A stretch of DNA of 64,000 nucleotides from contig NC_057726.1 of assembly GCF_004010195.1 (NCBI RefSeq), positions 37,534,288 to 37,598,287 of the forward strand, read 5' to 3'. Positions within the stretch are counted from its first letter, which is position 1, and the number at the start of each line of letters is the position of its first letter. Below, piece by piece: positions 14,948 through 62,654 of this stretch. This stretch comes from Chiloscyllium plagiosum. Its lineage: Eukaryota. The position numbers and the translations under genes were made by a program. Below the pieces are notes generated by a model that was given only the letters and a program-made list of their open reading frames with translations, was not told the DNA's origin and did no database searches.

Positions 14948-16277
14948 CTGTCAGTGTTGTTATATGTGGCACAGATCTGGCCTATTCCCAGAGCCTGTGC
15001 CGTCACAGTCACCTGGGCCATCTTTCATTTTAAAGATGGCCAGGATCCAAAAGGACTCGATGTACAAAGCTCTGGGCAATGGGCAAAAAAACACACCCTG
15101 ATGGCCACCTTTGTGTGTGGCTGCATCAAGCTGCGCGTGGATCCCCTGTATGCAAACACAAAGTGTCACTACGTACTGAGGTTCTAGTTAAAACAAAGGA
15201 CTGCAGATGCTGGAAACCAGATTCTAGATTAGAGTGGTGCTGGAAAAGCACAGCAGTTCAGGAGCCTCGCAGGATGCTGCCTGAACTGCTGTGTTTTTCC
15301 AGCACCACTCTAATATAGTACCCCCTACTAAGGTTCTACCTGTCCCCGGTGTTGCGAAGGATGGGCCTGGCCTCGCTGCCTCGGAACGCTTCAAGTCATT
15401 GGACAGTTCTGTATCACCTGTCCTTCGTGGAGAAATTTATGAAGAAAAACACCTTTGACCACAAGTCCATCAGGAAGTGGTCAGCACATAGTGTCCTTGA
15501 AACCCTTCGGGAAGAGGAGAGGGTGGATCCTGTCGAGCGGTTCCCTGGGCAGACTGTCAAAGTCATTTGGCAGAATGTCTCATCGGCAGAACTTTCCAAC
15601 AAGCACCAAGACATGGCTAGGCTGGAGGTGAGAAGGGCTCTGCCTGTGAGATCCTTTATGCATGCCCGGACTCTCTGCCGCACTGCACGCTGCCCTCAAA
15701 ATGGCTGTGGAGGGGACGAGACGGTCACACACCTCCTTCCGGACTGCGCAAAGGAAGTCTGGAGACGAATGCAGTGGTATTTGTCGAAGTTCGTCCCGAG
15801 CATCTTCGTGACGCGAGACTCCATGCCTACGGACTTTTCCCCGAGACGCACACCGAGGCGAACATCAACTGTACCTGGAGGATCATCAACTTGGTGAAAG
15901 ACACTCTTTGGTGTATCCGAAACCTGTTGGTCTTCTAGCTGAAGGAGCTGACCTCGACTGAGTGTTGCGGACTGGCACATTCCAAGGTCCAGGACTACAT
16001 GTTGAGGGATGCGCTGAAGCTTGGGGCAACTGCCGCCAAGGCTCGGTGGGGAAAGGCCACCGTGTAATATCTGCCTGAAAAAGAACAGGAGGCCCACGCA
16101 TTAAGTGGGTTCCACTGACGCCTCAGCTAAATATATGGATAGTAAACGTACAGATCTGTATGTATGAATGATTACTCTGTCTCTGTATGCAAAGAAATGG
16201 AATGTTTACGTGTGTATGGCATGACCAATTGTACAGATCATCAAAATATTTTATGAATAAAGTATATTTTTGAAATA
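14948..16277 (+). mobile_element. Tx1/L1-like non-LTR retrotransposon 3' portion with zf-RVT zinc finger
   Basis: GC/CpG-rich. ORF 15349-15897 contains ARCPQNGCGGDETVTHLLPDC (C-x-C...ET..HLL..C zf-RVT). 3' end tttatgaataaagtatatttttgaaa has a polyA signal. Confidence 0.85.
15187..15325. mobile_element. PLE pLTR fold-back mini-element inserted in the Tx1-like element
   Basis: Arms attagagtggtgctggaaaagcacagcagttcagg / cctgaactgctgtgtttttccagcaccactctaat; TSD tactgaggttcta / tactaaggttcta (15174-15186, 15326-15338). Confidence 0.85.
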
Positions 16278-18534: not shown

Positions 18535-18890
18535 GTCATACTATGGTACAAATGTCAGAAAGACATTTGATCTTTAAATCAGCTAGTTAGCATCATGACC
18601 TTCGATGCTGTCAGCTGAAAGATCTCCATTTTACTCTGTGTAGTCAACACAACTGTTCAGCAGGCAGTCAATAGCTTGTCAGTTAGTCTGTCTGTATGAC
18701 TCAGTCTTCCTAGACAGCTAGTCAGTCATTACATGTGTATGTACAGTAGTCATACAGTCAGCATACACAAGACAATATATATGCCTGAGATATTATATTA
18801 GTGTACATGGTTAGTTGCTAATAAACTTCAAGATATCTGACTCGACAAGAAGCAGACATGCTCTGTAGCATTTATCACGCAGATTAAAAT
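18535..18890 (+). mobile_element. Possible solo LTR
   Basis: Starts TGT; repeated agtcagt/agttagt words typical of U3; aataaa at 18820. 3' CA end and TSD not firmly placed. Confidence 0.3.
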
Positions 18891-19104
18891 AGAGAAATCC
18901 ACAAAGTACACCATTATTACACTAAGTGGATATTACATCATAAAGGCAGTAAGTAGCATTTGAAGACCAGATGGCAGTACATTCATACTGAAAGCTAGTC
19001 TCAGTACACCTCTACTAAAGATTGAGAAATGATGTTGAGAGTGGCAATTGCAAACAGTTCATTGTCATTGCAGTCAAGCTCTTTACAAGTCTGATTTAAA
19101 ACAA

Positions 19105-19144
19105 AGATTCCTGAAGAAGGGCCTGTGCCCGAAACGTCGAATCT
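19105..19144 (+). ncRNA. Minimal type-I hammerhead ribozyme motif (PLE family A), intact
   Basis: AGAUUC-CUGAAGA-A-GGGC cugu GCCC-GAA-ACGU-C-GAAUCU: 6 bp stem I, complete CUGANGA/GAAA core, 4 bp stem II, GUC cleavage triplet, palindromic ACGU stem III. Confidence 0.8.
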
Positions 19145-19235
19145 CCTGTTCCCTGGATGCTGCCTGACCTGCTGTGCTGTTCCAGCAATAAAGTTTCAAC
19201 TTTGATCTCCAGCATCTGCAGACCTCACTTTCTCC
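19106..19235 (+). mobile_element. Young PLE family A solo pLTR
   Basis: CpG-intact pLTR ending cctcactttctcc; perfect 16 bp TSD ttaaaacaaagattcc (19096-19111 and 19236-19251). Confidence 0.9.
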
Positions 19236-19829
19236 TTAAAACAAAGATTCCCTTAATACATTTGTAAAAAAGCTTTTAATATTGCTAACAATGTATCTGT
19301 CTAGTCATCAACTGATTCTGTCAATTTATTTGCTTTTGAAATGGCACAAAACCAGAACAAATGCATATGTGACATTGTTTTAATATATTATAAAGGCATG
19401 AACAACACATACAGACCCTGCTTTCTGATTTATTATAAATAATTAAGAAAAGGAAATACCACAACAACTTCCAAAGCAGCAATATGTAAAGGAAACAAAA
19501 ATGGGGAAGCCAGAAGAAACAAAGAATAGAGAAGCTTTACATTACAGAACTCATTCTTTTTCCTTTTGACAATTTAAAAGTACAAATAGTTACAACAAGA
19601 TTGGAAAACAAATGTCTAAACATCATTTTGTATTCTGTCCAAATTCCAATTTTTCAAAGAAGAAGAATGAATCTTTACTTTATAGATCAACGGATCATGG
19701 ACAAAGAGTGACAGGAGCCAAAATTCTTATCACTTTGGGGAGTAAATCAATGAGAAGGATTAAATCCTTCAGCATTTTGAGTGATGACTGCAAAAGATCC
19801 AGCCAAGATTTTCCACAGCTAGAATAGTT

Positions 19830-47531: not shown

Positions 47532-47698
47532 CAAAAAGTGTGATCCTGGAAAAGCACAGCTGGTCAGGCAGCATCTGAGGAGTTGACGTTTCAAGTATAA
47601 GCTCTTCATCAGGTATGCTGTCTGACCGGCTGTGCTTTCCAGCGCTACACATTTTGACTCTGATCTCCACCATCTGCAGTCCTCACTTTCTCCTAGTC
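47532..47698. mobile_element. PLE family A fold-back mini-element
   Basis: Arms ctggaaaagcacagctggtcaggcagcat / atgctgtctgaccggctgtgctttccag; TSD gattgcagacagagt (47517-47531 and 47699-47713). Confidence 0.85.
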
Positions 47699-56811: not shown

Positions 56812-57261
56812 AGGAGAAAGTGAAGGTGGGGGAGAAGATGAGAGGTCAGAGAGGAGGGTGGAGTGTATGGATGAGAAAGATGATGTATAGGGTCCCAAGG
56901 TGAAGAAGAGGCCTTCTTCCTCTGCCTTGGGACCCTGAAACCCCACGGATTAATGTGAATTTCACCAGTTTCCTCATTTCCGCTCCCTCTGCCTTATCCA
57001 AGTTCCAAGCCTCTAACTTGGCACTTGACCTGTACGTCATCTTTTTATCACCTTCTCTGACCTATCACCTTCTCCCTGACCTTCATCTATCTATCACTTT
57101 CTCAGCTATCTTCCCCCCAGCCCCAACCCCCTCCCATTTATCACTCAGCCCCCAGACCGCAAGCCTCATTCCTGATGAAGGGCTTATGCCTGCAATGTCG
57201 ATTCAATTGCTCCTTGGATGTTGCCTGACTGGCTGTGCTTTTCCAGCACCGCACTCTTGAC
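56812..57261. mobile_element. PLE family A insertion with inverted 5' part
   Basis: aggagaaagtga inverted tail, an antisense GIY-YIG fragment, then sense 3' region and pLTR with mutated hammerhead (cctgatgaagggcttatgcctgcaatgtcg); TSD tccacttgtagcat (56798-56811 and 57262-57275). Confidence 0.85.
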
Positions 57262-57687
57262 TCCACTTGTAGCATGACATGCTGAAGAAACATACAATAG
57301 TTTGTAATCAAATTACTCAGTACCAACCAAGGCATGGCTGTGCCTATGTTTGCAACATATGTAGATGTAGAAACTGTACTAAATGTCAATTAAGTATTTC
57401 AGTACTAGGTTGGCCATATCTAGTTCTTATTTTGTTGGAGCTAATACATATATTGCCTTATGAGGTACAAATAACTTGCTGAAATTAAAAACACATTACT
57501 GCATTTATGACAGATTATGAGAGCAAGTCAGGTCACTTGTACAAGTGGGATATTCAGCCAGATTTTAAATGTTTCCTGAATGACCTATAATAGTAACAAT
57601 ATACCTGGAAAGAGCATCTGATATTGAAAGTCATCATGGTGCAACTGGTTCTGTAAAGTGAAATGCTAATCTTGTGCTTGCATTGAA

Positions 57688-57830
57688 AGAGTTGGAAAGT
57701 GTGGTGCTGGAAAAGCACAGCAGGTCAGGCAGCATCTGAGAAGCAGGAGAGTCGATGTTTTGGGCATAAGTCCTTCGTCAGGAATGTGTCCCACACTTTT
57801 TGATTCTGATTTTCAACATCTGCAATCTCT
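57688..57830 (-). mobile_element. PLE family A pLTR
   Basis: gtgtggtgctggaaaagcacagcaggtcaggcagcatc...cttcgtcaggaat plus a short inverted tail. Confidence 0.8.
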
Positions 57831-58644
57831 TTTACATAAAGAGAGTAAATTATCTGAAATGAAGCATTTTATTCTTAAAAAAAAGTCCACGGAAGATTCA
57901 CATAAATATTTTCGAATGAAATAGAGAAAAATCTTGAATTATTATTTTGGTGAACATCAAAACCTTGAAGAGGAAGCTTATTGGAGAAGCCCTAATCCTA
58001 ATCTAATCTGCATGGTTTTCAGAACTAATTGCTGAAACTCAAGATTGTATTTAGTACTACCAAATAATCCAGTTTGAAATGAGCTATCAAAGTGGATCCC
58101 TTTGAATTTGCCAACTCTTAAAAGAGTTTTGTATTGTGACAAGCTGCTGAAGTTTGATCTGTAAGAGATTGGGCAGGAGGGTGTTGAACCCAACCTCCAC
58201 AACAGAACAGTAACAATAGTCCTGTCATTCTGAATGGTTCTGAAATCAGATGGTCAAAATCTTACTGATGAGTGGCACCCAACTAAGGTGACGGTTAAGT
58301 GGCAGCTACTTAAATATTCCAATCGTTTATTTGGTAATTGCTAGGGAATGCATCTTCTTAAACATTCATCTATAGTTTGCTGTACTAAGAGTCTTCAGTC
58401 CCATATTTCTACAGCCATTTCGAACAAGTTTAGTGACAAAATCATTGTTATAATGCTATGTTAAGATATTTTAACGAATCCTTATAAGCAATTTGTATTG
58501 TCCAGTGTCATCCAAGATAATTTCTTCAGAACAATAAGCTGCAATGAATAGTATTTGTTCAAAGAGTTGATTTCCTTTGAAGGGACTGAATAATTTCTGT
58601 TACCTTTTGTTGCTTTTATTTAATCAATAACTGCCATAACAAGT

Positions 58645-58770
58645 TGGTAAAAACAATGACTGCAGATGCTGGAAACCAGATTCTGGATTAGTGGTGCTGG
58701 AAGAGCACAGCAGTTCAGGCAGCATCTGAGGAGCAGTAAAATTGACGTTTCGGGCAAAAGCCCTTCATCC
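58645..58770 (-). mobile_element. PLE pLTR truncated within the hammerhead core
   Basis: gactgcagatgctggaaaccagattctggattagtggtgctgg...gacgtttcgggcaaaagcccttcatc. Confidence 0.85.
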
Positions 58771-59844: not shown

Positions 59845-61145
59845 GATGGCTGGAAGAACACAGCAAGCCAGGCAGCATCAAGAGGTGGAGAAGTCAACGT
59901 CTCAGGTATAACCCTCCTTCAGGACTGGAGATGGGGTAAGGGGAGCTGCAGTTAAAGAGAGATGGGGGATTGGGGAAGGTTTTGGATGAGAGGGGCAGAA
60001 TGTGAGGTAGTGATAGGTGAACACAGGTGGTGGGAAAGATTTGGTTGGTCAATGGAAGGAATGAATGAATCCAGTTGGTCGCTGGAAGAAAGGGTCGGTG
60101 GGTGGAATGGAAGGGAGTCGGGGGCTGGAAATGGAATCGAGAGATGGGTGGGAAGTTTAGTTGAAATTAGAGAACTCAGTTTTGAGTCCTCTGGGCTGTA
60201 GACTGCCCAAGCAGAAGATAAGGTGTTGTTCCTCAAATTTGCGTTCTGATTGATTGTGGTGATGGAAGAACCCAAGGATGGGCATGTCGGAGAGAGAATA
60301 GGAAGGGGAATTGAAATGGGTGGTGACCGGGTGGTCAGGCTTGCCCTTATGGGCCTGAAACATTCCCTACATTTTCTTTTGGTCTTACCAATGTCAGAAA
60401 AGATCAAATCGTGAGCGCCGGATGCAATAAAGGTTGGAGGAGAGACAGGTGAACCTCTGTTTCTCATGGAAGGACTGTTTGGGGTCCTGGATGGATGTGA
60501 GAGGGGAGGTGTGCTGGCAGGGTTTGCATCTTTTACAAGTGCAGGGGAAGGTTGGAAGGGGGGACTTGGGTTGGAGGGGTAGGGGGCGCGAACCACTCCC
60601 TCCCTGACATACATCTCAGCCGGGCCCGTGAGGGTAAGCCTGACCTCCCAGTTACCGCCCATTTCTATTCCCCTTCCCATTCCCTCTCTGACATGTCCAA
60701 CTTCAACCTCTCCCATTGCCTCAGTGAATCAGACCACAGTGGAGAAACAATACCTTATTTTCCATCTGGACTGCCTACAAACTGAAGGACTCAACACTGA
60801 GTTCTCCAATTTCAAATAACCTTACCACCCATCCCCTGACTCCTTCTCCATTCACGCTCCCCCACCCTTCTACCTTCTGACCCTTCCTTCCAGCTACCAA
60901 TCGGATTCATTCCTTCATTGACCAACCAGGTTGTACCCGCCACCTGTGTTCACTTATCACTACCTCACCATTCAGCCCCTCTCATCACCCAAAACCGTCC
61001 CCCATCTCTCTTTATCTGCAGTTGCCCCTACTCCCACCTCCATTCCTAAAGAAGAGTTATATCCAAAACATTGATTTTTCCACCTCCTGGTGCTGCCTGG
61101 CTTGCTGTGTTCTTTCAGCCTCCTGCTTGTCTACTTTGGATTCCA
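59845..61145. mobile_element. Head-to-head inverted pair of PLE 3' halves (GIY-YIG C-terminus plus pLTR)
   Basis: Minus ORF 60157-60363 HPVTTHFNSPSYSLSDM...EEQHLIFCLGSLQPRGLKTEFSNF; plus ORFs 60552-60819 LPVTAHFYSPSHSLSDM / EKQYLIFHLDCLQTEGLNTEFSNFK; a pLTR at each outer end. Confidence 0.85.
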
Positions 61146-61779
61146 GTCCACTGCAAACCCCAACAAGTAACTCCAACTCCAGAGGACAGACAAATTTCAG
61201 GAAGACGGATTTCAGAATGCACATGGCATCATTGGTGAGTTTTATATTTAGCTCCATTATGACGATACATAAGAAGTAAAAGGGAATATATCGGAGGCAG
61301 TAGTGAATGGTAATCACAGTAAAGATTAATGTGCAGACTCAGAGATCTATATTCCAGAATGGAAGGCAAAGCAAGCCTCAGGGGAAGGGAAGAGCCACAC
61401 AGTGTGATTTGCTCCAGGGAGGGAGTCACCACATAGTATGATTTTTCCCTTGTCCCTGGCCCCTCCGGGGGATGGATCTATCCATTGACCTGGAATTTCG
61501 AATCTACCTTTCAAAACAGATTTCAGGGAGTTTTGAAAGAGATTAAAAAGCAAGACCTCAATCAGTAATCTTAGGATATTTCGACTCTGATTCTCCAGCA
61601 TCTGCAGTCCTCACTTTCTCCCAATCTCAAGAATATTTCAAGTGTCATGCGTTAGTGGGTTTAAGAATGTGAGGAATTAATGGACTGAAAGTTGATAAGT
61701 ACCCAACAACTGATATTCTAACCCAAGAGTGTCGAGGCAATGGCTGAAGTAATAACAAAGATGAAGAGCCATAACAAAT

Positions 61780-62245
61780 AACAGTACAACACAGAAATAG
61801 GCCTTTCAGCCACCACGATTATACCAATTCATTATGCCTTTCTGAAATGAAAACCTATTGCCACTACACAATCCATATCTTTCTATTTCCTGCCTATTCA
61901 TGTATCCGTCAAGATGCCTCTTAAACATTGCTGCAGTAATAGCCTCTATCACCTCCTCTGGCAATGCATTCAAGGAACTTACCACCCTCTGTGGAAACGA
62001 ACTTGTCTCACATCTCCTTTAAACTTACCCCCTTTTACCTTAAACCTCCGTTTCCTAGTAATTGACATTTCCAACCCTCAAAAACAACTCTGACTATCCA
62101 TTCTATCAGGTTGCCCCCTCATCCTTTGAAGTTCAAGTGAAAATAAGCCCAATCTCTCCTCATAATTAATACCCTCCAAACAAGGTAACATTGTGGTAAA
62201 CCGTTTCTGTACCCTTTCCAAAACCTCCATATCCTCCTGGTATCC
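61780..62245 (-). mobile_element. CR1-type LINE 3' fragment
   Basis: caccctctgtggaaacgaacttg, ggcaatgcattcaaggaacttaccacc, ttctgtaccctttccaaaacctccatatcc. Confidence 0.75.
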
Positions 62246-62351
62246 TCTTTTTCTTTTTGACTAAAATCTCAGTTTCTCTTGTCGCCCAAGGTTCCTGAAC
62301 CGTGCTATCATTATCTTTCATTTCACTGCAACATGCTGGTCCTGAATTCTA

Positions 62352-62530
62352 GGAGAAAGTGGGGACTGCAATTGCTGGAGATCAGACTCGAGAGTGTAAT
62401 GCTGGAAAAGCACAGCGGGTCAGGCAGCAGTCGAGGAGCAGGAGAATCGAAGTTCCAGGCATTAGCCGATTCTCCTGCTCCTCGGCTGCTGCCTGACTTG
62501 CTGTACTTTTCCAGCACTACACTCTCGACT
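62352..62530. mobile_element. PLE family A fold-back mini-element
   Basis: Arms tcgagagtgtaatgctggaaaagcacagcgggtcaggcagcagtcgaggagcaggagaatcg / cgattctcctgctcctcggctgctgcctgacttgctgtacttttccagcactacactctcga; perfect 16 bp TSD ctggtcctgaattcta (62336-62351 and 62531-62546). Confidence 0.9.
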
Positions 62531-62654
62531 CTGGTCCTGAATTCTATTCAACTGGCCTTTAAACGTTTCCCACGACAGATGTGGATTTATCTTCAAACAG
62601 CCGCCTCCAATCTACATTCTCAGTTCCTGCCTAGTTGTTGCATACTTGATGCAT

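Follow-up and report, generated by a model that had tools for sequence, protein, structure and literature searches.

Structure of the locus

The window (the whole stretch of 64,000 nucleotides of Chiloscyllium plagiosum DNA that was analysed, to which all unprefixed positions refer) contains a solo pLTR of a Penelope-like element (PLE), flanked by a perfect 16-bp direct repeat (19096-19111 and 19236-19251). The pLTR includes a minimal hammerhead motif whose stem I overlaps the left repeat. The features are given below (TSD, target-site duplication).

19096-19111, no strand: left TSD copy, host sequence predating the insert; its last 5 bases (19107-19111) equal the element's own 5' end
19105-19110, + strand: hammerhead stem I, 5' strand, of which 19107-19110 are the family's native 4-base strand (sequence, RNAfold, family counts)
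19107, + strand: modal 5' end of family copies and putative RNA start (13 of 100 copies here, 44 of 100 in the equivalents of 19105-19110)
19107-19236, + strand: solo pLTR and tail, including shared edge bases (family alignment)
19111-19138, + strand: minimal hammerhead core, with C3-A9, extra A, 4-bp stem II with 4-nt loop, GAA, ACGT instead of stem III, and GTC triplet (compare PMC4209133, in part)
19112-19235, + strand: unique inserted DNA, 124 bp (empty allele, family alignment)
After 19138, + strand: predicted cut, from motif alignment
19139-19144, + strand: hammerhead stem I, 3' strand (sequence, RNAfold)
19187-19192, + strand: AATAAA hexamer inside the pLTR, a possible poly(A) signal
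19202-19236, + strand: optional 35-bp tail, between the family's two 3' ends at core +91 and +126
19236-19251, no strand: right TSD copy, whose first T is common to the element's last base (empty allele)

A preliminary description of this DNA had reported a solo Penelope pLTR of 125 bp. The solo insert stands, in agreement with the anatomy and endonuclease of the family (see below), and the length is corrected to 124 bp of unique DNA. From 19111 to 19236 the copy is identical to many other family copies (126 of 126 positions).

We compared the stretch 18600-19750 with four DNA runs: X3 and X5 (samples S2 and S3 of organism A, which shares most of the window's words), and X9 (organism B) and X16 (organism C), both from relatives. 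Contigs in X3, X5 and X16 skip 19096-19235 (140 bases, 16 of which fit both sides), and one contig in X9 joins 19098 to 19239. The empty allele is present in all four runs, each with a single 16-mer, and the X3 contig has no further difference across the compared stretch. The 16-bp repeat is therefore a true target-site duplication, as previously claimed, and the host 16-mer is older than the insertion, which is not fixed. The insertion is young and polymorphic and may be missing in other individuals; its youth had been proposed earlier, and both the identity to many copies and the empty allele bear this out.

The same runs decide against a reading in which the repeat would be no TSD but would mark where a circular or tandem monomer, a retrozyme-like unit of 140 bases, is joined. 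The family does have tandem units of 224 and 320 bases, and matches obtained with a query holding the flanks shared AAAGATTC upstream and TAAAA downstream. We rejected these flanks as element-encoded sequence: the sharing is a bias of that query, and neither the unselected loci (TAAAA follows +126 in 0 of 30) nor the empty allele bears it out. With one 16-mer in four of four runs, this reading is ruled out and retains practically no probability.

An abundant Penelope-like family

An exact 38-mer from the core (19111-19148) occurs 11,821 times in the genome (3.56 Gb) and an exact 36-mer further 3' occurs 18,405 times. We recorded the ends of 100 unselected copies, namely every one of the first 100 matches that the 3' 36-mer has in the genome (contig C1, 0-19.1 Mb). 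Forty-two of these end at core +89 to +96 and 58 at +122 to +126, so that the two 3' ends lie 35 bp apart. The family has the anatomy of an EN+ Penelope-like element: a pLTR at both ends of the ORF, a tail, inverted 5' copies and TSDs. In full-size copies the ATG of the ORF lies 37 bases downstream of the end of the pLTR or tail, some 135 bases beyond the cut, and the ORF stops about 170 bases short of the pLTR. The TSDs of simple insertions measure 8-21 bp, and head-to-head pairs are common.

A C-terminal GIY-YIG domain was matched in two of three ORF fragments scanned with Pfam (E 1.5e-4 and 4.1e-4), at scores of 22.4 and 21 bits, just under the Pfam cut-off of 22.6. It is preceded by a C-x4-C-x2-C linker, and two loci (L190 and L380) carry CX2-5CxxC and CCHH motifs. 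According to the available part of PMC8557442, a CX2-5CxxC endonuclease linker defines Neptune and is missing from Penelope and Poseidon. We classify the family as Penelope-like with a predicted Neptune-type endonuclease, the clade being taken from the endonuclease linker and not from an RT tree. No such tree could be made, since an unbroken ORF occurs in 0 of 20 regions fetched around 25 further matches, the full-size ones having N in the RT or middle region. An earlier search for the full ORF with our first pattern returned only a deletion derivative, at 30 of 30 loci.

Several variant arrangements were seen. Tandem units of 224 and 320 bases join a pLTR, the ORF start and the ORF-end region, each unit with an intact hammerhead (L097:2953-3804, L092, L319-L348); the 320-base unit is present in all 30 searched loci (L319-L348) and has 71 exact genome matches. 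Judged by their sequence, these are internal-deletion derivatives that form retrozyme-like non-autonomous arrays. At L388 (contig C26) and L391 (contig C9) the element's ORF start is followed by the same 3.08 kb of foreign DNA (99.97% identical) and then by a pLTR, an arrangement possibly due to pLTR-mediated transduction or to segmental duplication. Within the shared 3.08 kb is what we take to be a LINE-like RT fragment. Eight further loci (L397, L398, L400, L402, L404, L405, L419 and L421) follow this family no further than about core +64/+78 and match a sister family in the rest; they appear to be an intermediate or recombinant subfamily.

The window itself also contains older hammerhead-bearing pLTR remnants, at 25031, 28155, 42999 and 45753 (+ strand) and at 33103, 47546-47694, 57168-58769 and 59846-62536. 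They belong to at least three other families, and several are head-to-head.

The hammerhead motif

By inspection, the 5' strand of stem I (AGATTC, 19105-19110) is followed by the C3-A9 core CTGAAGA (19111-19117), an additional A (19118) between A9 and stem II, stem II itself (GGGC 19119-19122 with GCCC 19127-19130, loop CTGT), GAA (19131-19133), the palindrome ACGT (19134-19137), C17 (19138) and the 3' strand of stem I (GAATCT, 19139-19144). All conserved core positions (C3-A9, G12-A14, A15.1, U16.1 and H17) are present, as are an extra base after A9, the G10.1-C11.1 pair and a palindromic 15.2-16.2 without helix III. RNAfold gives the expected hammerhead fold at -12.3 kcal/mol, and in the host context 19000-19300 the pair probabilities are 0.76-0.82 for stem I and 0.99-1.0 for stem II. 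The preliminary description had listed every core nucleotide, a GUC triplet, ACGU in place of stem III, a 6-bp stem I and a 4-bp stem II; inspection and RNAfold agree with it on all of these, and both stems form in isolation as well as within 300 bases of host sequence. It also recognised a minimal type-I hammerhead such as those in Penelope-like pLTRs, and the features do match the kind described in the available text of PMC4209133.

A pattern for the core alone has 153 distinct matches in 1.14 Mb (window and fetched loci) compared with 7 in the reversed sequence, although these 153 are not independent, many being variants of one family because the fetched loci had been picked for this family. 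Stem II has at least 4 bp in 99 of the 153, as against 0 of 7 in the reversed sequence, and a self-complementary dinucleotide (allowing G-U) is present at 125 of the 153. The motif is not due to chance. Among related families, stem II covaries (GGGC/GCCC, GGAGC/GCTCC, AGGT/ACCT, GTTACC/GGTGAC) and so does stem I (ATTC/GAAT, CAC/GTG, GAGTT/AACTC, CTCA/TGAG). In the closest sister family just two consecutive pairs of stem I are kept. Position 19141 is A in this family, giving a perfect 4-bp stem I, and T in most related reads; a sister family with the loop TTAT has a U-U mismatch at the equivalent position.

Rfam covariance models, proposed earlier as a check, gave no hammerhead family among five matches at E up to 10. 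Since the motif lacks helix III, this outcome was expected.

Stem I and the target site

Among 8,328 copies with a full ATTC, the preceding base is C in 6,344, G in 1,083, A in 715 and T in 186. C is thus the predominant native upstream base and the native stem I is ATTC/GAAT, of 4 bp. The 6-bp version found here is the more stable (-12.3 versus -7.7 kcal/mol in RNAfold), and this could favour activity of this copy. The preliminary description pointed out that stem I overlaps the target and assigned the TSD end agattcc to the 5' strand of stem I. The overlap is real but ordinary, not a special contribution of the host, and the last C of the TSD (19111) is C3 of the core, outside stem I. AGATTC occurs in 279 of the 11,821 copies, or 26% of the 1,083 in the G class, near the background for A, and of the 18 TSDs that include the base ahead of ATTC, 16 run on into ATTC. 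TSDs commonly enter the element's first bases in this way, so that the overlap represents junction microhomology, which is described for PLEs at 5' junctions in the available part of PMC3846280. In the window copy the target match extends over 5 bases to the native end, or 6 including G19106. This G matches the G that often precedes the family's 5' end, and A19105 is likely a chance extension from the host. A template switch to the ORF start was considered as a source of AGATTC and rejected, being seen in L005 and L006 only, with A before G at background.

Where copies begin

The 5' ends of the 100 copies fall at core -6 or further upstream in 17 cases, at -5 to 0 in 44, at +1 to +27 in 30 and at +30 to +54 in nine. 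None begins at +29, the first base past the cut. The pile-up at stem I is clear: 44 copies begin within 3 bases of its first base, the A of TCATTCC. This native context is initiator-like and fits the initiator consensus YYANWYY. With no start at the cut site and nine beyond it, 91 of 100 copies span an intact cut site.

Cut-site starts are also few genome-wide. Counting starts preceded by a purine, we found 125 at +29, 40 at a control position (+36) and 1,798 before ATTC (with a longer pattern). Thirty of each of the first two groups were inspected. Those at +29 include 21 head-to-head junctions, 5 host-flanked copies and no point variants; those at +36 include 11, 10 and 7, respectively. Seven of the 30 cut-site junctions join at ATTC/GAAT complementarity. 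There is thus a small excess at the cut site, partly from ATTC/GAAT microhomology, which concerns at most about 1-2% of copies; the difference between 125 and 40 makes some use of cut RNA possible. The native upstream base is kept in 6,344 of the 11,821 core copies (54%), and many templates therefore ran past the proposed start.

At six loci (L065, L066, L068, L082, L085 and L125) the first bases of the element, or target bases, are repeated in short stutters at the 5' junction. Their sequence suggests repeated slipping and re-priming at the cDNA end.

An extra G before the start

Among simple insertions flanked by a TSD, a G preceding ATTC falls outside the duplication in 16 of 26 cases, and an A or T in 3 of 17 (2 of 6 and 1 of 11, respectively; Fisher p 0.006). 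Scaled to the genome counts this corresponds to roughly 184 G, 39 A and 5 T. At other start points, G outside the TSD was seen in 0 of 8. The copies examined comprised 94 with G, 37 with A and 35 with T, the remainder of these being head-to-head, complex or without a TSD. This tally omits L001-L030 and L090, and the tally of 18 TSDs given above omits L001-L030 and L061-L090; both leave out C-class copies and copies near a locus edge.

A cap copied as an extra G is known from LINE biology. The G that is missing from the target and often stands ahead of an ATTC start likely marks a capped RNA start that was copied uncut. A T precedes the G in 35 of the 94 G-class copies, which the cap model on its own does not explain. 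Our literature search, mostly of open-access papers, returned nothing relevant on a cap-derived G in PLEs.

The pile-up at ATTC could instead be a stop or template-switch point for the RT, aided by the self-complementarity of ATTC/GAAT, with the G coming from a fold-back or from a head-to-head partner. One copy (L087) is an exact fold-back through stem I, self-priming has been proposed for PLE palindromes (PMC3846280, in part), and the seven cut-site junctions at ATTC/GAAT complementarity fit this reading. So does the element sequence upstream of 55 of the 94 G-class copies, whose junctions are head-to-head or complex and whose G could come from the partner copy. Under a fold-back, however, the bases upstream of the G should read A and, beyond it, another G. 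The A occurs in 26% and a G ahead of AG in 3 of 30, both near background, and for this reason we rejected the fold-back as the main source of the G. The G outside the TSD in 16 of 26 simple, host-flanked insertions also argues against the RT-stop explanation, which we consider rather unlikely.

Activity and host transcripts

The preliminary description proposed that this copy may cleave host transcripts that read through it. In such a scenario the host target would have completed a stronger stem I, and the copy would cut + strand read-through RNA, alone or in trans with another copy. All core bases are present, the 6-bp stem I is stable in host context, and family RNA occurs on both strands (X21 reads, locus L320). 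Two copies can also pair through ACGU in a cofold, keeping both stems I while stem II swaps between molecules.

Several results count against it. In the available portions of the literature, a single minimal motif has no detectable cleavage and dimers have low activity (PMC4209133; for background on hammerhead dimer cleavage see PMC6155905, also in part), and the motif of an anole PLE required the element's protein for cleavage and had no RNA-seq ends at the cut site (PMC11167929). The nearest + strand cores with an ACGT palindrome lie at distances of about 6 and 24 kb and come from other families; the window copy is single, without a tandem partner at the locus (retrozymes are defined by at least two tandem hammerhead units), and by this analysis the tandem derivatives would be likelier to cleave as dimers. 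Nor is the insertion fixed, and in 91 of 100 copies of the family the cut site lies within the copied sequence. No host domain above the Pfam cut-off was found in 290 of the 310 non-repeat window ORFs of at least 48 aa, a scan that passes over short or domain-less exons. Given the published inactivity, the lack of a tandem partner and the lack of a recognised host exon, it is possible but unlikely that this lone copy cleaves host RNA, and we regard the host-cutting reading as a whole as improbable.

Two matches in the same scan lie below the cut-off; one is to zf-RVT (15319-15894, + strand, E 7.6e-5), a LINE fragment.

No pile-up of RNA starts or ends was seen in 541 family reads (X21 on L320, about 2% of a poly(A) single-cell run that was not cap-selected). 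At L320:1342, equivalent to window position 19201, 23 X21 reads have a loose poly(T) end, a few bases after core +91 and about 12 past AATAAA. These ends may reflect a poly(A) signal that works in some copy, or else priming at an A-run in the genome, and could come from a single locus.

We consider it probable that the locus is a recent, polymorphic solo pLTR from an abundant family of Penelope-like elements whose endonuclease is of the Neptune type, inserted with a true 16-bp TSD and carrying a minimal hammerhead that is likely inactive as a lone copy.

Comparison with known systems

The closest ribozymes are the minimal hammerheads that the pLTRs of metazoan PLEs carry (Cervera and De la Pena 2014, PMC4209133). 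In the available text these share with the present motif the type I fold, the full core, the extra base after A9, G10.1-C11.1, a palindromic 15.2-16.2 without helix III and an occurrence mostly as single dispersed copies. Stem II has 4 bp here compared with 7-8 bp in the Schistosoma examples, and the copies here are highly uniform, unlike the examples in that paper, the main text portion of which does not name sharks. Our search of the literature (mostly open-access papers) returned nothing relevant on hammerheads of shark PLEs.

For the insertion process, the nearest system is PAc, a Poseidon element of Anolis carolinensis (Frangieh et al. 2024, PMC11167929, available portion), in which unprocessed RNA is the main template and initiation is internal, with a tail. 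The two agree in having two internal RT starts, a tail of 30-40 bp, cutting and extension of both strands, uncut RNA as the main template and no RNA-seq ends at the cut site. They differ in that the ORF of PAc begins inside the hammerhead, whereas here the ATG lies past the cut site, and in the endonuclease, which here has the C-x4-C-x2-C linker of the Neptune type, unlike PAc.

The Neptune-type EN+ PLEs (Craig et al. 2021, PMC8557442, in part) likewise have a C-terminal GIY-YIG with CX2-5CxxC, a hammerhead in the pLTR, partial tandems, inverted 5'-truncated copies and a one-sided tail. The present inserts lie in ordinary sequence with clear TSDs, unlike those elements. Animal non-LTR retrozymes (Li, Clavereau and Pollet 2026, bioRxiv 10.64898/2026.07.22.740005, in part) are hammerhead-bearing, non-coding PLE derivatives, comparable to the tandem units elsewhere in this family; they form tandem arrays, whereas the locus is a single pLTR with a TSD.

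A proposed insertion route

The initiation sites, the pile-up of starts, the microhomology and the empty site are observed; from them we infer nicking, capping and annealing steps, which may be ordered as follows. The element's protein would nick both strands about 16 bases apart. Reverse transcription would begin internally, at the tail end of the 5' pLTR near the RNA 5' end, and the cDNA would run 130 bases through the uncut hammerhead to the capped RNA start (the A of TCATTCC). Its end would then anneal to the matching target, GATTCC, and in this proposal stem I overlaps the TSD because of that annealing. Initiation at the 5' pLTR tail with run-off would yield the 130-base solo pLTR, and initiation at the 3' pLTR would yield copies that reach the ORF end. 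The hammerhead would be expected to cut only when dimeric (in tandem units, by way of the ACGU palindrome) or when bound by the element's protein. An internal promoter has been shown for the Penelope element of D. virilis (PMC2377424, in part).

A more specific and tentative model, to which we give somewhat less than even credence, is that the RNA starts on the first base of stem I, that reverse transcription, begun internally, continues off the capped end and copies the cap as G, and that more than 95% of templates are uncut. The ribozyme would then be placed to remove exactly the 32-base capped leader, as a decapping off-switch on the element's own RNA and not as a device for monomer release.

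Implications

The minimal hammerhead type is already known from PLEs and a lone insertion is ordinary. This analysis contributes the empty allele, the genome-wide junction counts, the scarcity of cut-site starts and the untemplated G. The family record bears on the role of PLE hammerheads, an open question in the available parts of PMC8557442 and PMC4209133. In vitro, uncut RNA serves as template (PMC11167929, in part); the more than 18,000 young copies of this vertebrate family support that result in vivo, and their junctions point to a precise RNA start position that can be tested. Thousands of these insertions would do host RNA no harm if solo minimal hammerheads are largely silent, and any effect on the host would more likely come from the promoter of the insert or from its AATAAA.
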